A stretch of DNA of 64,000 nt from Escherichia phage T4_ev151 (LR597660), one strand, 5' to 3'; numbered from the stretch's first letter, positions 2,129 to 51,274 are shown. The notes: generated by a model not told the origin, from the letters alone. Made by a program: numbers and translations.

Positions 2129-2158
2129 ATTATACCACATCCTTGTGGTAAAGTAAAC
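2129..2158 (-). promoter_or_regulatory. sigma70-type early promoter (-35 GTTTAC, 18-bp spacer, extended -10 TGTGGTATAAT) for rIIA.1/rIIA
   Basis: plus-strand attata 2129-2134 and gtaaac 2153-2158; 30-nt near-identical copy at 46104-46133. Confidence 0.6.
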
Positions 2159-3978
2159 TACTGGCTCATCCATTCTTTGCGAAGGTCAGCATTATCTCCC
2201 ATGAGCATTTCAAAAAGCTCTTTCCAGTTCTCAGGAAGTTTAACAACATCATATACTGGATTTTGAATCATCTCACGATATTCAGATTTTTCCAAAGAGC
2301 CAAGTCCTTTAATATAACGGATGCTATGTTTAGGTAGAGCATCTTTGGCACTCTCATATTCAGCGACTGTATAAAACCATTCTTGTTTTTTACCGACCTG
2401 AGCGATGATTACAGGAGTTTTGACAAAGCGAATTCGTCCTTGCTCAAACAGTTCTGGCCAATTACTAAAAAATCCAAGAAGAGAAGGATAAATGCTTCCT
2501 AGACCATCATGGTCAGCATCAGTCATAATAGCAATATTATGATAATTCAAGTTTTCAGCTTTTTCACCAAGAACTAATCCAGTGATTGCGCAAATATCAA
2601 ATAGTTCTTTATTTTTAAGCATATCAGCATATGACATACCCCAACTGTTGAGAACTTTACCACGCAATGGATAACCACCATGAAGTTCTTTATCACGAAC
2701 ATCAATAAGATATCCGATAGCAGAATCACCCTCAGTCAAGAAAAGAGTAGTATCAGCATCTTTACCGCAAAGATTCGCTTTGATATGTTTATGAACTTTA
2801 GCTTTAGAAGCCTTTTTAGCTGCTTTAGTTTCAGCTGCTTTTTCTGCTGCCAATTTACGAGCTAGTGCAGCTTCAATAATCGGCATTAAAATTGCTTCAT
2901 TATTTAGAATAGCGCGTGAAATCTTTTTAGCATCAAGCTGAATATGACTACGAATTTCACCAAATGGAGAAGTCAAACGCTCTTTAGTCTGAGAATCAAA
3001 TCGCATGTTTTTCATATCACGAACAAACATAACGATAGTCAAACATTCTTTAACACGTGCTTTAGTTACATCAATTTTGAACTTGCGCTTGATTTGTGGA
3101 ATAAGGTCTTCACAAATATCATCCATAACGCAGTCAATGTGATGGCCACCATTCTTAGTATGAATGTTATTGACGTATGTTAATTGACGAAAACCATCTG
3201 GTGAACGACCAACCGCAATAGAACAATTTTCTTGTTCTTGAACAATAGCATGCTCATCATATTGGCGTGCATATTTCTTAAAATTACCCTGAACCTTTTT
3301 ACCATTAAAGGTAAATTGAATATCAGGATAAACTACTGCAAGTGTCTGGAGACGATCTAGTGTAATGTCAAGATAAACTTGAGATAGCTCATTAGTTTCA
3401 AATGACATAAAATCAGGAATGAAAGTAACGCGAGTTCCTTTCCATTTTCCAGGAATAGTTTCCCAGGATTTATTTTCCATGCCATTTGAACAACGAACTA
3501 CAATATTATTTTGACCATCGCCAGTTTCACCGACAAACATCACAGAAAAAATGTTAGTTAAACTAGAACCAACACCATTCATACCACCGGTGACACGTTC
3601 TTTATCATCACCAAAGTTACCACCCGCTTTTGGAATAGTCCAAGCAGCAACTGGACCAGGAATTTCTTCACCGGTAGGTGTTTTAACCATCGCTTGTGGA
3701 ATACCACGACCGTTATCTTCAACTGTTACTTGATTGTTTTTGATAGTAACATTAATTTTATTTGCGAATTTAAACTTAGTACGAATACCTTCATCTACTG
3801 AGTTATCGATAATTTCATCAATAAGCTTAACAAGACCAGGTACATACTGAACACTTTCCCATTTACCAAACAGAAAGCGCTCATGCATTTCATTAGCAGA
3901 AGAGCCAATATACATGCCGCTACGCTTTTTGATATGTTCAATATCGCTCAGAATTTTAATTTCATTCTTAATCATCAC
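2158..3978 (-). CDS. 39: DNA topoisomerase II large (ATPase) subunit, uninterrupted 39+60 fusion
   Basis: 606 aa; GHKL motif IDNSVDEG; C-terminal third (IAIMTDADHDGLGSIYPSLLGFFSNWPELF...) is the segment encoded separately by gene 60 in T4; single continuous frame. Confidence 0.9.
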   Translation of the reverse strand: MMIKNEIKILSDIEHIKKRSGMYIGSSANEMHERFLFGKWESVQYVPGLVKLIDEIIDNSVDEGIRTKFKFANKINVTIKNNQVTVEDNGRGIPQAMVKTPTGEEIPGPVAAWTIPKAGGNFGDDKERVTGGMNGVGSSLTNIFSVMFVGETGDGQNNIVVRCSNGMENKSWETIPGKWKGTRVTFIPDFMSFETNELSQVYLDITLDRLQTLAVVYPDIQFTFNGKKVQGNFKKYARQYDEHAIVQEQENCSIAVGRSPDGFRQLTYVNNIHTKNGGHHIDCVMDDICEDLIPQIKRKFKIDVTKARVKECLTIVMFVRDMKNMRFDSQTKERLTSPFGEIRSHIQLDAKKISRAILNNEAILMPIIEAALARKLAAEKAAETKAAKKASKAKVHKHIKANLCGKDADTTLFLTEGDSAIGYLIDVRDKELHGGYPLRGKVLNSWGMSYADMLKNKELFDICAITGLVLGEKAENLNYHNIAIMTDADHDGLGSIYPSLLGFFSNWPELFEQGRIRFVKTPVIIAQVGKKQEWFYTVAEYESAKDALPKHSIRYIKGLGSLEKSEYREMIQNPVYDVVKLPENWKELFEMLMGDNADLRKEWMSQ

Positions 3979-5799: not shown

Positions 5800-5884
5800 G
5801 TTGTTTTCTGTATCAGTAGTTGATATTGATATAGTACCATAATCAACTACTGATGTATATAGTTTTATGAAAAAATTTTAAACT

Positions 5885-17871: not shown

Positions 17872-17899
17872 GATAATCTCCTCAGTAGTTTATGTTTAT

Positions 17900-17929
17900 A
17901 TAGTATCTCAATTTCCAATAAAAGTAAAC
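17900..17929 (-). promoter_or_regulatory. early promoter (-35 GTTTAC / -10 TACTAT)
   Basis: gtaaac 17924-17929. Confidence 0.45.
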
Positions 17930-17931
17930 AG

Positions 17932-18189
17932 TTATTTTAAAACTTCTGCATAATCACATGTTACAAACTGTTTCTCTAACTTGGCGATTTTACGAAAGTA
18001 TCTTTTGCATTGACGAATCTGTCGCTTTGTAGGGCGCACAGCAAACTTAATAAATTCCACTCGACCAAATGGAGGGCTTTCTTCTGCCGGAATATCTAAT
18101 ACTAATTCCCACGTATCTGCAATAAGTGCTTTGAATTGAGTATTTTTCCTGACATTATACGGAGTAGGTTTAAATAAAACGATATGCAT
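17932..18189 (-). CDS. small basic protein at 61.4 position (start moved to MHIVLF with GAGGA RBS)
   Basis: 85 aa, Lys/Arg-rich. Confidence 0.45.
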   Translation of the reverse strand: MHIVLFKPTPYNVRKNTQFKALIADTWELVLDIPAEESPPFGRVEFIKFAVRPTKRQIRQCKRYFRKIAKLEKQFVTCDYAEVLK

Positions 18190-24096: not shown

Positions 24097-24120
24097 ATCT
24101 GTATCAGTAGTTGATAGTTG

Positions 24121-24150
24121 TATAGTACCATGGAAGAACAGTCTTGTAAA
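24121..24150 (-). promoter_or_regulatory. early promoter with conserved stem-loop leader (PeSL-like cassette)
   Basis: gtaaac 24145-24150, -10 TACTAT; transcribed tatcagtagttgata inverted repeat at 24101-24115. Confidence 0.55.
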
Positions 24151-24238
24151 CAGTTTTGTGAAAATTTTTTAGGGAATTCTAAAGGTCCAGAATCATCTGT
24201 TTTTCATAAGTATAGATTTATATTACTTGTATGAAAAA

Positions 24239-38229: not shown

Positions 38230-38396
38230 GATCGCAAATCATGCGTTTATGTAACTTGAGTAATAATATAGCAAACTTCAAAACTATTTACATGAGTAAC
38301 ACGAACAGCATTACCATTAATAAAATAATATTGTCCCTTTTTAATTTCTTTATCAACCACAACCATATTAATTCCTCAAAGGCAATTCATATGTTA

Positions 38397-38426
38397 ATAA
38401 TACCACAGTTTGAACTTGTTGTAAAC
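38397..38426 (-). promoter_or_regulatory. early promoter (-35 GTTTACA / -10 TGTGGTATTAT)
   Basis: gtaaac 38421-38426. Confidence 0.55.
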
Positions 38427-38507
38427 AACTTTGTGAAAAATATTTTAGGGAATGATAAGAAAGGAACGATAGCTTAGAATGGTAATATACAGAATGTGAG
38501 AAAGAAA

Positions 38508-42568: not shown

Positions 42569-42889
42569 TTATAGCGTAATCCATTCTCGTACTATCTGAG
42601 TTACTACACGTTCTCGAAGCTCAACCAGTTCAACGGTAGGAACTGCATAATACCAGTCAGAATGGTAAGAACCTGAGCGAGATTCATTTACAGCCACATG
42701 TACATTATGTTTTGGACTAAAATAAACACACTGACGATATTGGCATTTACCATCTTGCACCCAGTCTTCTATTTCGATAGGTTTAAGATAGTCGGAAAAA
42801 TCGAAATCATAGTTTTCCGAAAATGCATCATGGTCTTCGATGATTTCACTCAGAACTGCATCAACATCTAATTTATTTTCAATAGTCAT
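42569..42889 (-). CDS. hypothetical protein
   Basis: 106-aa ORF. Confidence 0.4.
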   Translation of the reverse strand: MTIENKLDVDAVLSEIIEDHDAFSENYDFDFSDYLKPIEIEDWVQDGKCQYRQCVYFSPKHNVHVAVNESRSGSYHSDWYYAVPTVELVELRERVVTQIVREWITL

Positions 42890-43289: not shown

Positions 43290-43549
43290 TTAAAGTATTC
43301 TCGCAATTGGTCAAATCCACCAATATGACTTCCATCAGGAGCAAATACCTGAGGCATTGTTAAGCCGATTTGAGTATCACGACCTAGTTTCGTCAGAAGC
43401 TCAGCGATTTTCTCATCATCAAAAACACCTTTTTCCGGCATAATATTGATAAATTCAAACGGTTGTTTCTTAACAGTCAAAAGACGTTTTGCATTATCGC
43501 AATACACACATTTGTGGATGTTGCTATCATAACCATATACTTTAAACAT
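43286..43549 (-). CDS. nrdC: thioredoxin/glutaredoxin NrdC
   Basis: 87 aa; CVYC active site. Confidence 0.8.
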   Translation of the reverse strand: MFKVYGYDSNIHKCVYCDNAKRLLTVKKQPFEFINIMPEKGVFDDEKIAELLTKLGRDTQIGLTMPQVFAPDGSHIGGFDQLREYFK

Positions 43550-43550
43550 A

Positions 43551-43808
43551 TTATTCCTTAATTCCTAGTACTTGTTTAAAAGTCTCGTCGTAATCAAGAC
43601 TTTGGCCCGTTTGTTCTTTATGTTTGTATATAATATCACTTACTTCTGATAGCATATTTTTATATGAACGAGTTAAAGCAGATTTAAGCACGCTGTATCT
43701 ATCAGGAAATTTACCATGTTCATTATAATAAGCTATTGCTAATTCACGGACTGCCTTTTCAGCAGTCTCCATATATTCTTTACGCTTTGTCATTTTCTTC
43801 TCGGTCAA
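43551..43808 (-). CDS. hypothetical protein
   Basis: 85-aa ORF. Confidence 0.4.
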
Positions 43809-44094
43809 ATCGGTGTTTACAATGGCGACATTTATAACGAAGAATACTAGTCTGCCAATGAATCAATTGAACCTGTTCAGTTCCACATTCAGGGCAATTA
43901 GGAACGTTTTTAGAAGCCCTTTCACGACGTTCAACCATGACCATTACAGAATCCCAATTAACAGGAGGGCTATAATCATCACAACCATAAATCTTTCCAC
44001 GCATTTCCAAATTGTCTTCTTCACCAGCCATAATAATTTTAATTAGACTAGAATTACTTGAAGCTACAATGTCTTCTAATAGACGCTTTTTCAT
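43780..44094 (-). CDS. zinc-ribbon protein
   Basis: 104 aa; CPECG...CRHCKHRF. Confidence 0.45.
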
Positions 44095-45020
44095 TTCAAT
44101 ACCTCAATAGCATTGCGTAAACCATTTGCTTTTGCATTAAGAGCTTTTAACAATTTGGTGTGTTCTGCAATTTGGGCTTCAACTTCAATCAAACGAGCAT
44201 TGAGATATTCGCGTTCTTCGCTCAAGTTATCAACCTTTTCTACTTTAGGCTCTTTTACAACTGTCTTATATGTATTAGGGTTCTTCAGTTTAATTAGAAT
44301 GCGTGAACTGTATAACATTGAACCATTATCTTCGGTTTCGTCATACATTTCCACTACGTCCATCATCTCCACCATCGTGCAGAGTTTATAAGACAACGAA
44401 CGAATAATTTTGTTGTGCTTATTAATTTCTCTAGCTGTCATGGTGCCGAGATTACGTGAGTAATAATAAGGAACCTGGATATTAATTAATACTGATGAAC
44501 CACCTGGCTTGTGTGTTACTTCATCAGCAATAACCCAATCCTTAACATGAACTGTATTTGTACGGTCATCGCCCGCGGTAAATAGTTTACGAGCATGCTT
44601 AAAAAGCATATTCACTTGGTCATTGAATTGACAAGCGAATTTATCAGCAAATTTAGTTTCGGGAATGGTAGATAACCAATCAGCCAAATGGGTCTTTTTA
44701 ACATCGTTAACAATAGTAAATTCAACCAAATCGGTTATAGATGTCGCAGTTTTAATGAATCTCGGCTTCATAAAGTTTTTAATGTTATCGCGAGCTACAG
44801 TAGAAGATAACATACGAGAACGTTTAAACCATTCAAGTAAATTGCCTAACGAATGAGAATAAGCGTTCTGAGTATCTTTACAGATATGATTTTCCTGGCC
44901 AACATACTGAAGGAAATCACGAAGAATATTATTGATTACTGCTCTGTGTCCTATCTGATAATCACGATGTTTAGTAATAAGACTGTCAAAATAATCAATA
45001 TAATGTTTACGAGTTTTCAT
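44091..45020 (-). CDS. coiled-coil-tailed paralog family member 1
   Basis: 309 aa; C-terminal heptad-like [33 protein letters not shown]. Confidence 0.5.
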   Translation of the reverse strand: MKTRKHYIDYFDSLITKHRDYQIGHRAVINNILRDFLQYVGQENHICKDTQNAYSHSLGNLLEWFKRSRMLSSTVARDNIKNFMKPRFIKTATSITDLVEFTIVNDVKKTHLADWLSTIPETKFADKFACQFNDQVNMLFKHARKLFTAGDDRTNTVHVKDWVIADEVTHKPGGSSVLINIQVPYYYSRNLGTMTAREINKHNKIIRSLSYKLCTMVEMMDVVEMYDETEDNGSMLYSSRILIKLKNPNTYKTVVKEPKVEKVDNLSEEREYLNARLIEVEAQIAEHTKLLKALNAKANGLRNAIEVLK

Positions 45021-45074
45021 GTTCTTCTCACTTGGTTAATGGTTTATACTCCGAGCCATCCTTGGCTTTAAATT

Positions 45075-46076
45075 TTACTTAATTAACTGTAAAGCTTGTT
45101 CAAGACGATCCAGGCGATTAACAGATTCTTCCCAAATCCTTTTAGCCTGCTCATATTCTTTCTGTGCTTTATTAGAAATTTCTAGAACTTCTTTATAAGC
45201 TTTTTCTAATGCAATAACTTCTGGACGAATTTCTACCGGTTCAGGTGAATCATCAAGATTATCCATTAGTTCCTCAAGGGTAGTTTCTTCTTTAGGAGTA
45301 TTCACAATTTCATCACATTTTTGTTGGTAAATTTCTTTATCAGTCGGTGAGTACGCACACTTTACTTCACGAAGACTAACTACAATTTTATATCCTTCCC
45401 AACCGCATATATTCTTAAAAGGATAAGTATGAATATTTTCTACCGTTTCCATACAAAGTAATGCAGTCTCTAACTGACGAGTTGTATCACTAGCAATTGA
45501 GAAAAATTTATTAATGTTCTTTTGATTAGCTTCTGGTGTAAAAAATTCGTAATTCACAAAAACAGCTGCTTTATTTTTATCAAGTTCATATTCTTTTATG
45601 ATAATCATATCAGAAGCCAAAGGATGAATTTGACGATAATCGCCATAACATAATTTAGAAGCTGATTTTAGAATTTGCTTCTTGAAAAGTCTAAAATTAC
45701 TAATCCAACGACGAGTAAAAATATTCTCAGGGTCTTCTTTATTATTAAGATGATAAGAATTAACATCACCGAACCAACTGTATCCTACTACATCTTTGGT
45801 TCGTTTAATTTCTTTCCCAAAATTACTAAGAATATCTTGATTAACTAAATATGAAAGAAGACGAGACCCTTTAAAGGTTTCCTTAATATCATCTTTATCT
45901 ACACGACTAGAAATTTTATGAACTTCATGAATAAATTTGCTGGAAGAAACAATACTTGCATCAGTATTGTTGAGCCACTGATTGATAATAGAAAGAACAC
46001 TATTCTGACTAGACATAGGTTTAACTTTATCATCAATAACGCTATTGAATGATTTGATATATTCGTTACGAGTCAT
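45075..46076 (-). CDS. coiled-coil-tailed paralog family member 2
   Basis: start MTRNEY with GAGGA RBS (track start overlaps promoter); RRWISNFRLFKKQILKSASKL shared with member 3. Confidence 0.5.
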   Translation of the reverse strand: MTRNEYIKSFNSVIDDKVKPMSSQNSVLSIINQWLNNTDASIVSSSKFIHEVHKISSRVDKDDIKETFKGSRLLSYLVNQDILSNFGKEIKRTKDVVGYSWFGDVNSYHLNNKEDPENIFTRRWISNFRLFKKQILKSASKLCYGDYRQIHPLASDMIIIKEYELDKNKAAVFVNYEFFTPEANQKNINKFFSIASDTTRQLETALLCMETVENIHTYPFKNICGWEGYKIVVSLREVKCAYSPTDKEIYQQKCDEIVNTPKEETTLEELMDNLDDSPEPVEIRPEVIALEKAYKEVLEISNKAQKEYEQAKRIWEESVNRLDRLEQALQLIK

Positions 46077-46103
46077 ATTAATCTCCTCAGTAGAAAGTAA
46101 GAA

Positions 46104-46133
46104 CATTATACCACATCCTTGTGGCAAAGTAAA
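46104..46133 (-). promoter_or_regulatory. early promoter, near-identical copy of the 2129-2158 promoter
   Basis: attataccacatccttgtggcaaagtaaac. Confidence 0.55.
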
Positions 46134-47156
46134 CTAGTTCAGTGCATTTAGTGCATTGTTCAATTTAGAACGTTGCTTCGTGAGATTTTTGACTTTTTCT
46201 TGAGCTTTTTCTAGCATCTTTTCAGCTTCTAGCACTTCATTAGTTGCTTTAACGAGTTCATCATCTACTGCCTTGATAGACTTCTCAATCGCATCCGCGT
46301 GCCATTTTTCAACAGGTTTAAGACTCGGATTTTCAGTAGGAAGAAAATTCACTTTATTGAATTTCCATGCATCTTTATTACCTGAGCTATACATCCAAAA
46401 TTTAGGATCGTTTGATGAGCAATTAGATAAATTTAAGTTATCTTGCACTTCCTGCTTTTTCTCTTGCGGGACTTCATCCTTTCTCAAAAAATCGTATTTA
46501 AATGAAACGATCATATCAAGTTCATACGTTGTTGTATGTTCCCAATTTCGCTCAAAATGAGGTAAAATCTTAGACTGAACAGCGGCAACAACATCCATAT
46601 ACTTAAATGCTTCTGTCAACTGTGATTTAAGGCATTCACAAATTGAAAGAGAATTTTTTGTATTAGGTTTAAAGCTAATTCGTGCAGTTCTATTATTTTC
46701 TTTTAATGGTCTTACTTCCATCTGAAGAGTATAACCATCAAATTTCAGGTTCTTTAAGTTAATATCAGAGCCTTTTAATCGACTAGCAGTAGACAAAATT
46801 TGCTTTAATTGTCTACGGAACAGAGCAATAAATCTCCATTCAATACGATAATGATTTGGATTGAAAAATCCAGATGATAAATCGACCTTACTTTGACCAA
46901 CGCCTTGAACAAATAGAGGATTTTTATAATCAATAGTTTTACAGAAATCGGTGAGCTGCTCACGAGCAGTCATTTGTGTAATATACCCTGCTTCATTAAA
47001 ATTACGCACCCATTCACTGCTATTCTTATACTTAAAGTGATGAATAGCATGATTAACTTTACCAAGGTCTAAATTATTTTCACACAAAAATGTCATAACA
47101 TCACGAGTATAGCTGGCATTACGAACCATATCTTCAATTTGAGAACGAGTTTTCAT
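46134..47156 (-). CDS. coiled-coil-tailed paralog family member 3
   Basis: 340 aa; RIEWRFIALFRRQLKQILSTASRL; C-terminal coiled coil. Confidence 0.5.
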   Translation of the reverse strand: MKTRSQIEDMVRNASYTRDVMTFLCENNLDLGKVNHAIHHFKYKNSSEWVRNFNEAGYITQMTAREQLTDFCKTIDYKNPLFVQGVGQSKVDLSSGFFNPNHYRIEWRFIALFRRQLKQILSTASRLKGSDINLKNLKFDGYTLQMEVRPLKENNRTARISFKPNTKNSLSICECLKSQLTEAFKYMDVVAAVQSKILPHFERNWEHTTTYELDMIVSFKYDFLRKDEVPQEKKQEVQDNLNLSNCSSNDPKFWMYSSGNKDAWKFNKVNFLPTENPSLKPVEKWHADAIEKSIKAVDDELVKATNEVLEAEKMLEKAQEKVKNLTKQRSKLNNALNALN

Positions 47157-47164
47157 GGTGTTCC

Positions 47165-48067
47165 TTAAGATTTAAGTAAATCAACAATTTTAATTAACTT
47201 TTCACGCTCAGATTTAGCTTTACTACTCAGTCCAGATAGTCTGAAAATTTCATCATCATATTGTTGAATAGAAATATTCAGCTCTTCAATTTGCTTATTA
47301 AAATAATCAATTTGCTCAGAATGTTTTTCATTACTACGAACTGGTACAGGTTTTGTAGGCAATTTAGTTGAACTGGATTCATCCGGGCGATAAATTAAAA
47401 TACAACTTGAACCAATAGGGCATTTTGCACCAGATGAATATTCTAATGTTCCGGATTCTTTTAAAACTTCAAAAGCTAAACAGAGATGATGCCCCATATT
47501 AACATAATCTGTAGAGTGAGCTCTGATATAATAATCATCGCCACGAATACTAAATTTAAAGCATTTAAGGTCTTCTGTATTATTGGTCTTAAAAATCATT
47601 TGTTTATCTAGACCTTTAGCTAATCGAGCGCCTAATGCTAATAATCGTCGTTGATTTTCCCACAAATCTGCGATCATTTGGTCAAATGATAATTTCGGCA
47701 TTAGTCGACCATAAAGGTCATATCCTTTATTATAATTGCGAAGGATTTCACTCGCATTAATACGAGACAACGCTCCAATTTTATTAAGGGCTTTCATGAT
47801 GCGATTAGATAAACCCATTCCAGACCCATTTGTTCGTTGTAAATGTTTTTCTAATCCAAATCCAATATCAACTTTAAATTTATCTAAAATTTCAGCATGA
47901 ACATCTCTGTCAATAACATTCAAATCCAAAGTTGGGTTAAATCTATGAAAAAATTTATCTGGCTCTCCACGACGAAGTACAGTCCATTCATTTAATTTTT
48001 TATTAACTAAAGATTTAATTACTGCATTGACATTATTAATTACTACTGACATATTTTTCTCACTCAA
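47165..48067 (-). CDS. coiled-coil-tailed paralog family member 4
   Basis: 300 aa; WENQRRLLALGARLAKG and C-terminal coiled coil. Confidence 0.45.
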   Translation of the reverse strand: MSEKNMSVVINNVNAVIKSLVNKKLNEWTVLRRGEPDKFFHRFNPTLDLNVIDRDVHAEILDKFKVDIGFGLEKHLQRTNGSGMGLSNRIMKALNKIGALSRINASEILRNYNKGYDLYGRLMPKLSFDQMIADLWENQRRLLALGARLAKGLDKQMIFKTNNTEDLKCFKFSIRGDDYYIRAHSTDYVNMGHHLCLAFEVLKESGTLEYSSGAKCPIGSSCILIYRPDESSSTKLPTKPVPVRSNEKHSEQIDYFNKQIEELNISIQQYDDEIFRLSGLSSKAKSEREKLIKIVDLLKS

Positions 48068-48468
48068 TTTTCAATTTTACTAAATACACAGAATATGATG
48101 GAAAAGACTATATAAGCACCGCATACAGATTGAACTAATACCATTCCAAAGAACCAAACAATATTATCAAACAATGTCTGTTTTACGTCGAAAGGACGTA
48201 AACTTACAGTAATATTATCGCCTTTTTCTATTGATGAATACATCTCTGGTGAAATATATTCACTAAATCTATAACCGTCTTTGAGTTCATATACAGCAAT
48301 AAACGATAAACTAGACCCCTTTCCTTGAGTTCCTGTAAAGGTATTAACTACAGTAACATCATAATCTTTATAATGCATATAATCATTAATAGCATAATAA
48401 CCATATGCAATTATTATACATAAACAACATATCAATAAATTCAATCTTTTAATTATCAACTGTTTCAT
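48064..48468 (-). CDS. membrane protein
   Basis: 134 aa; N- and C-terminal TM helices. Confidence 0.45.
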   Translation of the reverse strand: MKQLIIKRLNLLICCLCIIIAYGYYAINDYMHYKDYDVTVVNTFTGTQGKGSSLSFIAVYELKDGYRFSEYISPEMYSSIEKGDNITVSLRPFDVKQTLFDNIVWFFGMVLVQSVCGAYIVFSIIFCVFSKIEN

Positions 48469-48523
48469 AATAATCTCAATTAAAAGGGCTTAGAACCATT
48501 ATACCATCCTTGGTATAAAGCGG

Positions 48524-49051
48524 TTATGCGAGTACCGTCTTTAACCGTTCTTCAAACTTCCGAAGAGTATTTTGGCGTTCAGCTCTTTGCTTTTTGTAAG
48601 TTTCAATACGCTCTGAAATGAGAGTGTATCGTTCATTTACTGATTCTTTCATAAAATCAGGAATTTCACGAGAAGCTTTAATCTCGTCAAATTTATCAAT
48701 AACAGCTTGCTCTTCAGCAATTAAGTTATCATACATCAAAATATCTTTCTTGATGAACTCAATATCTTCTTGAGTTACACGAGATAATTTAGATGCTTTA
48801 TCCTTTTTGTACTGTTCGTTAGTATCACGAGACCAGTGTAATGTACGATTTTTATTCGTATTTTTGTAAATTTCTACAATACCAATCTCATCGATAATAA
48901 CGATCCAATTCCAACGAGATTTGTAAATTTGTCCTCCATCAACCGTGATTTCACCTCCGATTGAGATGTCATTAAAGAACTTGCTTTGTGCTTCTGATTT
49001 AAATTTACCATCATTGTAATTTACCAGGTTGAAAATATCTTTAGCGTTCAT
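48524..49051 (-). CDS. hypothetical protein (start at MNAKDIF, downstream of promoter)
   Basis: 175 aa. Confidence 0.45.
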   Translation of the reverse strand: MNAKDIFNLVNYNDGKFKSEAQSKFFNDISIGGEITVDGGQIYKSRWNWIVIIDEIGIVEIYKNTNKNRTLHWSRDTNEQYKKDKASKLSRVTQEDIEFIKKDILMYDNLIAEEQAVIDKFDEIKASREIPDFMKESVNERYTLISERIETYKKQRAERQNTLRKFEERLKTVLA

Positions 49052-49079
49052 TTTCTGTTCCTCCGTAGTTGATAGTTGT

Positions 49080-49109
49080 ATAGTACCACAGAGGAACGGT
49101 CTTGTAAAC
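49080..49109 (-). promoter_or_regulatory. early promoter with stem-loop leader (PeSL-like)
   Basis: gtaaac 49104-49109, -10 TACTAT, leader gtagttgatagttgtatag. Confidence 0.5.
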
Positions 49110-49111
49110 AA

Positions 49112-49426
49112 CTAAAAGAAACTTCTTTCACAATTTTTTCCACTGAACCACGCGCTCACTGCTTTCTTAGTCTCAGGAGCAGTGTTATCCATAAACCATT
49201 CAAAGGCAGCCTTTTTATGATTCTGGAGGGCTTCTCGGGCTTTAATCTGCTCACGGTCTATTAACACTAACATATGAGCCTTTCTTGTCACCATGGGCTT
49301 CTTATGATTCTTGGAGTATTCCCAGTCATTTGTCCAACGCATTGTCGTTGCGAACTGATGAACCGCGTCTTTAATTTTAGTTTCGTAAATTTCACGAGCC
49401 TTTGAGTATAACATCATTACCTCCAT
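49112..49426 (-). CDS. hypothetical protein
   Basis: 104-aa ORF. Confidence 0.4.
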   Translation of the reverse strand: MEVMMLYSKAREIYETKIKDAVHQFATTMRWTNDWEYSKNHKKPMVTRKAHMLVLIDREQIKAREALQNHKKAAFEWFMDNTAPETKKAVSAWFSGKNCERSFF

Positions 49427-49496: not shown

Positions 49497-50216
49497 TTAG
49501 GATTCTTCTAAATGTCTTTTCTGAAAAGTTGATACCATACTACGATACGGTTCATTTGGATACCCGTGTTTTATAGCTTCCTTTGTAAATTTTCTCCATC
49601 CATATTTAGTTTCTTTCCAAAGCTCGAATAATTCATCTTCATATTGCCATATAGTTAAATGAGAACGCTTTGCAGCTTTAATTCCATTAATATGCTTTTC
49701 TTTTACTACAGGATTGCTTAGTTTCTTTTTAATAATATTACTAACTTTTCTAACAAAAACTGGGTCCTTATATCGTTGCGAAGTTTTTATTGAAGTGTTT
49801 AATTTAGCTTCCGGCGTGGATGTGACCTCTTTCATCTTTTTCTTCATATGCTGTATATGATTAGGATTTTTCCATAAATTTATAGAATGCTTTTTGCATT
49901 TTATCCTAGTTTCATCTGCAACCTTTCCTCCTTCACCCCCGTATGACAGGTTAACACAGTTTTTTCCATATTTCAATTTACCTGCCATGATATATAATAT
50001 TTCAGCTTGTACCATTTTATCATAATTATCAAAAACTTCTAAAACCGTTTTTGATAATATGTGGTCATTTGACACTTTTACACGTTCTATATAATTTCCA
50101 CTACCAACATACGAATCATTGATGTTATTAGTTATATGTCGACCATAATAATATTTCTTAATACCTGTCTTTAAATTTAATATTTCAGTTTTATAGATAG
50201 TAAAATATTTTTTCAT
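49497..50216 (-). CDS. possible free-standing GIY-YIG-like homing endonuclease
   Basis: 239 aa; N-terminal TIY...YYYGRH...YVGSG; basic C-terminal repeats resembling DNA-binding modules. Confidence 0.4.
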   Translation of the reverse strand: MKKYFTIYKTEILNLKTGIKKYYYGRHITNNINDSYVGSGNYIERVKVSNDHILSKTVLEVFDNYDKMVQAEILYIMAGKLKYGKNCVNLSYGGEGGKVADETRIKCKKHSINLWKNPNHIQHMKKKMKEVTSTPEAKLNTSIKTSQRYKDPVFVRKVSNIIKKKLSNPVVKEKHINGIKAAKRSHLTIWQYEDELFELWKETKYGWRKFTKEAIKHGYPNEPYRSMVSTFQKRHLEES

Positions 50217-51193: not shown

Positions 51194-51215
51194 ATCCGTA
51201 TCAGTTGATAGTTGT

Positions 51216-51245
51216 ATAGTACCATAAAGCTTTATGCTTGTAAAC
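51216..51245 (-). promoter_or_regulatory. early promoter with stem-loop leader (PeSL-like)
   Basis: gtaaac 51240-51245, -10 TACTAT, leader gtatcagttgatagttgtatag. Confidence 0.55.
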
Positions 51246-51274
51246 AGTTTTGTGAAAAATTTTTGAAATAAAAA

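Follow-up and report, generated by a model that had tools for sequence, protein, structure and literature searches.

What do four neighbouring genes, nrdC.3 to nrdC.6, do in the genomes of T4-like phages, and are they related to one another? We examined these genes in a stretch of 64,000 nucleotides (nt) of Escherichia phage T4_ev151 (LR597660), hereafter called the window, whose sequence identifies it as a Tequatrovirus, one of the T4-like phages. A sequence-only reading had placed four tandem paralogs at 44091-48067, each with a common motif and a coiled-coil C-terminus, and regarded them as a typical arms-race locus. All four neighbouring minus-strand genes are present (aa, amino acids; RBS, ribosome-binding site; ORF, open reading frame):

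44091-45020, minus strand: nrdC.3 ortholog, 309 aa; assigned by synteny.
45075-46076, minus strand: nrdC.4 ortholog, 333 aa from an ATG with RBS GAGGAG, or 350 aa from an upstream TTG; assigned by synteny.
46134-47156, minus strand: nrdC.5 ortholog, 340 aa; assigned by synteny and by Pfam DUF7235/PF23882.
47165-48052, minus strand: nrdC.6 ortholog, 295 aa from its ATG; assigned by synteny, PF26899 family.

The true starts are likely the ATG codons with ribosome-binding sites. The end at 48067 for nrdC.6 belongs to a TTG-start ORF, and the earlier outer coordinates are those of the longest TTG-start ORFs. The position and order of the genes between nrdC.2 and nrdC.7 are the same as in T4 (synteny with NC_000866 and with Shigella phage SHFML-11), making them orthologs of the T4 genes. 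Across 43500-48600 the window is 97.4% identical to SHFML-11 (743 matching phage records), and identity to the T4 proteins is 60% for nrdC.3, 91% for nrdC.4, 93% for nrdC.5 and 97% for nrdC.6.

Pfam splits the four proteins into three families: PF26897 (nrdC.3 and nrdC.4), DUF7235/PF23882 (nrdC.5) and PF26899 (nrdC.6). The nrdC.5 product passed the Pfam threshold for DUF7235 over residues 1-340 (417.9 bits against a cut-off of 30, E 4e-125), and among the four this match was limited to it. The labels PF26897 and PF26899 were precomputed and stood on every close homolog returned. The nrdC.6 ortholog carries the conserved motifs NYNKGYDLYGR and NQRRLLALGARLA. PHROGs draws the same boundaries: phrog_1435 spans nrdC.3 and nrdC.4, and nrdC.5 and nrdC.6 fall into separate families.

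We asked whether these families are homologous. BLASTP among the four proteins was significant for nrdC.3/nrdC.4 only (26% identity over 226 aa, E 2e-7), a pair that hhalign joined with a probability of 98%; thus, pairwise BLASTP alone cannot test a four-gene paralogy. Direct hhalign comparisons between the three families gave probabilities of 1-19%, which are suggestive and collinear but insufficient by themselves. In the profile alignments of all family pairs, the three motif strings of the sequence-only reading superimposed collinearly. The shared motif is therefore upheld by profiles, although pairwise BLASTP backs it for nrdC.3/nrdC.4 only. Database searches with single members stayed close to home. 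A phmmer search with nrdC.5 against 1.84 billion representatives returned its own small family of restricted distribution (just 12 cluster representatives), plus fragments, but missed the other paralogs; tblastn with nrdC.4 did not reach distant genera; and a locus search of viral contigs with the nrdC.6 alignment yielded 13 loci, all from genera already seen.

The families are linked by a bridging family of single-copy genes (PM2_092, PEi20_089 and Q7622_093), found in T4-like genera other than Tequatrovirus, that occupy the nrdC.3 position. PM2_092 of Pectobacterium phage PM2, found through a Foldseek match of the nrdC.5 AlphaFold model and then retrieved by accession, adjoins nrdC.2 and is the sole such gene in that phage; Kanagawavirus phages likewise have one copy at that position. 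In hhalign, the single-copy profile matched nrdC.6 with a probability of 96.9% (P 1.7e-10) and nrdC.5 with 92.1% (P 6e-7); its match to nrdC.4 was weak (17%, P 1.4e-3). When the profile was compared with all 64 ORFs in the window that reach 120 aa or more, the best three were exactly nrdC.6, nrdC.5 and nrdC.4. Profile-profile comparison thus supports a single superfamily, to which the nrdC.3/nrdC.4 branch is bound least firmly by sequence.

Predicted structures supply a second line of evidence. The AlphaFold model of nrdC.4 (pLDDT 83.6) consists of an N-terminal helical bundle (residues 3-84), an alpha/beta core (88-235) containing the motif helices (119-142), a disordered linker (262-287) and a C-terminal helix (285-332). 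In the nrdC.5 model (pLDDT 71.4), the linker spans residues 228-277 and the C-terminal helix 282-339. Both models run through the same elements in the same order: five or six N-terminal helices, a three-stranded meander, two helices, a beta-hairpin, a long helix, a second beta-hairpin, a disordered linker of 25-50 residues and a single C-terminal helix of 48-58 residues. In both, the motif of the sequence-only reading corresponds to the helix pair after the first beta-meander. When searched against BFVD, both models matched the PM2_092, Cronus, Mineola, fHe-Yen9-01 and PS2 proteins (E 1e-3 to 4e-8). The Foldseek matches of nrdC.5 were uncharacterised 310-370-aa proteins of other Straboviridae. 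Those of nrdC.4 overlap with them and include proteins of Acinetobacter, Klebsiella, Erwinia, Serratia and Yersinia phages, the nrdC.6 protein of JS10 (E 5.8e-5), the single-copy family members IME523 and PM2_092, and a 308-aa protein of fPS-65 that we read as nrdC.3 on the basis of size only.

Given the bridging profile, the common fold of the nrdC.4 and nrdC.5 models and their overlapping structural matches, we assign the four genes to a single old superfamily that is restricted to T4-like phages (Straboviridae). The proposal of tandem paralogs is thereby confirmed, and chance low-complexity matching of the motifs is opposed by the bridging profile, the Foldseek targets and the shared topology. 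The paralogy is real yet ancient: the three families are less than 20% identical to each other. nrdC.3 and nrdC.4 represent one more recent duplication, with nrdC.3 as the most recent duplicate in the PF26897 family, and this branch, the most diverged of the superfamily, appears tied to the others mainly by predicted structure. Two further BFVD matches, E5E4A1 and E5E4A2 of Acinetobacter phage Acj61, have the same fold and consecutive UniProt accessions, which suggests that a tandem pair arose independently in a distant genus.

Pfam, NCBIfam and PDB sequence searches returned no enzyme-like match; in the PDB they gave nothing meaningful, only designed helical repeats aligned to the nrdC.4 N-terminus. 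Many GenBank genomes tag nrdC.1 to nrdC.9 as 'thioredoxin'. No Pfam or NCBIfam match to a thioredoxin or glutaredoxin domain was found in any of the four proteins, and the tag was apparently carried over from the name of the neighbouring nrdC gene or from its use as a prefix. Residues 30-88 of nrdC.3 (window 44757-44933) gave a weak NCBIfam match to the XerD/XerC tyrosine recombinase N-terminal domain (E 9e-4), far under the cut-off and possibly due to chance.

All four proteins end in a heptad-like helix, which the sequence-only reading had put at about 30 aa. The helix and its heptads are real, but the length was understated: the single C-terminal helix measures 48 aa in the nrdC.4 model and 58 aa in the nrdC.5 model. 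Six or more heptads run unbroken in a single register, with 83-92% hydrophobic residues at the a and d positions, as in a continuous-heptad coiled coil. A first, strict 28-residue heptad score did not separate the signal from shuffles; in the 42-residue single-register test used instead, the heptad contrast was reached by 0-30 of 1000 shuffled sequences. The helices end similarly in all families (KLxxAhxxLK). However, hidden Markov models (HMMs) of the helix built with one family left out did not find the omitted family, and between-family similarity was not significant, so we regard the helix as a shared structural feature rather than as proven sequence homology. An HMM built from all families picked up neither nrdC.8 nor any other window ORF; thus, the helix does not represent a more widely shared module. 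The T4 reference copy of nrdC.6 (NC_000866; L002 10067-10894) is 275 aa long, with its C-terminus out of frame and without the heptad helix. By tblastn the full 295 aa are found in T4 in two pieces, and the T4 annotation of the HIDEN-SEQ study gives 891 base pairs (bp); the short reference version is probably a frameshift or sequencing error.

How stable is the array? Between genera the number of copies is 1, 3 or 4, given here in transcription order:

Tequatrovirus: nrdC.6, nrdC.5, nrdC.4, nrdC.3.
Mosigvirus: nrdC.6, nrdC.5, nrdC.3-type.
Dhakavirus-like phages: nrdC.6, nrdC.5, nrdC.4-type.
Kanagawavirus and Mosugukvirus: single copy.

Copy number also varies inside Tequatrovirus, so that a comparison of related phages reveals one to four copies, deletions that arose naturally, one split gene and chimeras fused in frame. 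In Bas43 TadeuszReichstein (L023 5918-7430), nrdC.8 leads directly to nrdC.3; nrdC.4 to nrdC.7 are missing, and nrdC.3 alone of the four paralogs is kept. ACG-C40 (L005 5790-6219) has nrdC.6 and a fused remnant made of the N-part of nrdC.5 and the C-part of nrdC.3, and in one IMG/VR contig (L010 8923-9982) nrdC.4 is split into two ORFs. A protein encoded on 167-kb contigs (P0056, precomputed label PF26897) consists of the nrdC.5 core followed in frame by the C-terminal half of nrdC.3, with the junction at a short KVN/QVN match. The alleles vary as well: the window carries a hypervariable allele of nrdC.3, which shares 60% identity with its T4 counterpart and 76% with the Mosigvirus copy, and nrdC.3 alleles are 59-60% identical where the flanking genes are 91-97% identical. 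In two further proteins (P0230 and P0235), unrelated N-termini are fused to the nrdC.5 C-terminal helix. The nrdC.6 match in Sf22 (H89) and the nrdC.4 match in Sf25 (H151) run about 250-340 bp over the normal length, in two pieces, and the Sf25 nrdC.6 protein (P0120) has 378 aa; these long copies may be internal duplications or insertions.

What do the genes do? The best clue is nrdC.5. A T4 clone with compensatory deletions was blocked by Dsr1 of E. coli ECOR17, and nrdC.5 expressed alone from a plasmid let the deletion phage infect Dsr1-carrying cells again (Srikant et al. 2022, eLife, PMC9391042). That study did not relate nrdC.5 to nrdC.3, nrdC.4 or nrdC.6, nor did we find anything in the searchable literature that does. 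The window product of 46134-47156 has the same length and position as T4 NrdC.5, is 93% identical to it and matches DUF7235 over its full length; the Dsr1 activity belongs to the T4 protein, and the window allele is likened to it by orthology. The anti-defence reading is well founded for nrdC.5, from the literature on the T4 gene. For the other three, a role in immune evasion is likewise probable, because they are paralogs of a gene known to disarm Dsr1. The genes themselves and the nrdC.5 activity were already known; our analysis adds that three uncharacterised families belong together, one of them with a validated anti-Dsr1 protein.

The genes around the array point the same way:

42569-42889, minus strand: gp49.2 ortholog, assigned by synteny.
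43551-43793, minus strand: nrdC.1 ortholog, assigned by synteny.
48524-49051, minus strand: nrdC.8 ortholog, assigned by synteny.

gp49.2 is an inhibitor of OLD (PMC13096335), and nrdC.1 and bas37_0203 are reported to inhibit Septu and Druantia III, respectively (10.1101/2025.11.20.689424). We considered bas37_0203 as one of the four paralogs and rejected it: gene order and size in the gene table of that report identify it as the nrdC.8 ortholog. Because orthologs of gp49.2, nrdC.1 and nrdC.8 flank them, the four paralogs sit inside an anti-defence island. Such islands of T-even phages (dmd-tifA-adfA; gp49.2; nrdC.1; the nrdC.8 ortholog) are the same type of early, dispensable and hyperplastic region, but their inhibitors are small, unrelated proteins, whereas the four form a multi-copy family of 300-340-aa multidomain proteins. 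On E. coli K-12 all four genes are dispensable, since both T4 and Bas37 are reported to accept transposon insertions in them. Further along, between nrdC.9 and nrdC.10, the minus strand carries a 239-aa ORF (49497-50216) whose SHFML-11 counterpart is annotated as a DNA endonuclease; T4 has no gene there. Read by eye, it looks to be of GIY-YIG type and is likely a mobile homing endonuclease.

Within the array, the junction between nrdC.5 and nrdC.4 holds an element with a near-identical copy elsewhere in the window, and a second hairpin lies in the next spacer:

46105-46136, minus strand: early-promoter-like element TAGTTTACTTTGCCACAAGGATGTGGTATAAT, between nrdC.5 and nrdC.4, with TTTACT-17-TATAAT at 46133-46105.
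2129-2160, minus strand: near-identical promoter copy, downstream of gene 39 and upstream of rIIA.1/rIIA.
45051-45068, minus strand: hairpin AGCCA-AGGA-TGGCT, in the nrdC.4/nrdC.3 intergenic spacer.

The two promoter copies are identical at 31 of 32 nt and have unrelated flanks. An rIIA-type promoter between members 2 and 3 had been noted and is there, but the data give no direction of copying, so that 'duplicated from rIIA' does not follow. The spacer of the element forms a PeSL-like hairpin, CCACA-AGGA-TGTGG (46109-46126), whose AGGA loop recurs in the hairpin at 45051-45068. The element stands at the nrdC.5/nrdC.4 junction in every four-gene Tequatrovirus locus examined, T4 included (one substitution in locus L022), and is absent from the three-gene genera. 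It fits the PeSL elements described for T4-type phages (Arbiol 2010, PMC2839356; Comeau 2014, PMC4122927) in the reported T4/PST consensus TTTACW-N17-TAYWAT, in its spacer hairpin, in its location in a hyperplastic region at a gene-cassette boundary and in having a near-identical copy elsewhere in the genome. PeSL elements are proposed in the cited account to mediate cassette shuffling (PMC4122927); the likeness of the window element lies in consensus and hairpin, and the recombination role is putative. Several families of early-promoter-like direct repeats of 30-70 nt are scattered over the window, with copies typically 60-87% alike (5813-5879, 17882-17948, 24104-24170, 38379-38445, 49062-49128 and 51198-51264; further families D2-D5); among them the 2129/46105 pair stands out at 97%.

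How might such proteins work? We give a probability of roughly 60% to the whole explanation, namely that these are diverged tandem paralogs, made early and oligomeric, that inhibit host immune proteins by direct stoichiometric binding. The proteins are made early in infection and are dispensable on laboratory hosts. Each would be a four-part protein that begins with an N-terminal helical bundle, continues with an alpha/beta core and a flexible linker, and closes with a long heptad helix. The helix probably makes the protein oligomeric, and such a multidomain build would suit a stoichiometric binder of an immune protein. By orthology, nrdC.5 would neutralise the NAD-depleting sirtuin Dsr1; nrdC.3, nrdC.4 and nrdC.6 may act on different defence proteins or on different alleles. 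Duplication and loss of genes, together with allelic replacement and recombination, would then tune the set to the hosts met, and promoter-hairpin elements may serve part of the recombination. A functional analogue of the proposed nrdC.5 role is DSAD1 of phage SPbeta, which is reported to block the sirtuin DSR2 by binding; no search that we made found a sequence or fold relation between DSAD1 and the four proteins, and Dsr1 has another sensor than DSR2, the reported triggers being the tail tube protein for DSR2 and the major capsid protein for E. coli Dsr1 (PMC13581612).

The arms-race interpretation that had been offered for the locus is supported by the action of nrdC.5 against Dsr1, the anti-defence neighbours, dispensability, copy-number variation and the divergent nrdC.3 alleles. 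Several points count against our explanation. The anti-defence role of nrdC.3, nrdC.4 and nrdC.6 is one that we only infer, as are direct binding and oligomerisation, and the action of nrdC.5 on Dsr1 could be indirect. The window nrdC.5 is 93%, not fully, identical to that of T4, and its host-side target may differ. At the sequence level nrdC.3/nrdC.4 are tied only weakly to the other families (P 1e-3 to 1e-2), and the nrdC.5 model has moderate confidence (pLDDT 71) with a shallow alignment. Finally, none of the four genes was significantly depleted in the transposon-screen conditions considered here, among which there was no Dsr1 host.

Could the proteins act as decoys instead? In this alternative, which we consider unlikely, the alpha/beta core would copy the fold of tail-terminator or tail-completion proteins, and the early paralogs would occupy sensors of a late structural protein without activating them. 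Because they are made early and are non-essential, the four proteins are not themselves virion parts. Placing the tail-protein match on the core is a matter of interpretation. Tail terminator and completion proteins (lambda gpU, SPP1 gp17-like, DUF3168) have no sequence similarity to the four, the scores are too low for a homology claim, and tail terminators are built without the extra N-terminal bundle, linker and coiled coil. For Dsr1, the one known target, a tail-protein decoy is further weakened by the reported sensing of the major capsid protein. A broader version, slightly harder still to credit, makes the whole superfamily a set of early tail-terminator/tail-completion imitations, each saturating a different receptor for conserved virion proteins, with the coiled coil providing multivalency to match oligomeric sensors. 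If true, it would define a phage-encoded family of 'antigen mimics' expanded by tandem duplication.

We think it improbable, too, that the four proteins assemble through their C-terminal heptad helices into one hetero-oligomeric complex with a single shared task in place of four anti-defence tasks. The genes are co-transcribed in a fixed order, and all four products end in a long heptad helix on a disordered linker with similar ends, as such a complex would predict. Yet nrdC.5 alone restores the deletion phage on Dsr1 cells (PMC9391042), natural phages have one or three copies, Bas43 has nrdC.3 only, and between families the helix sequences show no significant similarity. The last alternative, by far the least probable and already largely refuted, is that the four are unrelated ORFans or thioredoxin-related proteins with a motif and coiled coil due to chance or composition: the non-significant between-family BLASTP, the low direct hhalign probabilities, the three separate families of Pfam and PHROGs and the failure of the helix in the leave-one-family-out test would agree with it, but the 92-97% bridging matches to nrdC.5 and nrdC.6, the paralogs' place as the top three of 64 ORFs, the identical topology of the nrdC.4 and nrdC.5 models, their common Foldseek targets (an nrdC.6 among them) and the undetected thioredoxin domain all speak against it.

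Taken together, these results merge three uncharacterised Pfam families into a single superfamily, one member of which has an experimentally validated anti-defence role. The T4 'dark-matter' genes nrdC.3, nrdC.4 and nrdC.6, with their Straboviridae relatives as far as Acinetobacter phages, thus become testable candidates for immune inhibitors. The array, with its 1, 3 or 4 copies, deletions, chimeras and divergent alleles, is a natural series in which to follow how a counter-defence family grows and shrinks with host range. Phage therapy makes wide use of T4-like phages, and the content of this locus may help to predict which strains they can infect.

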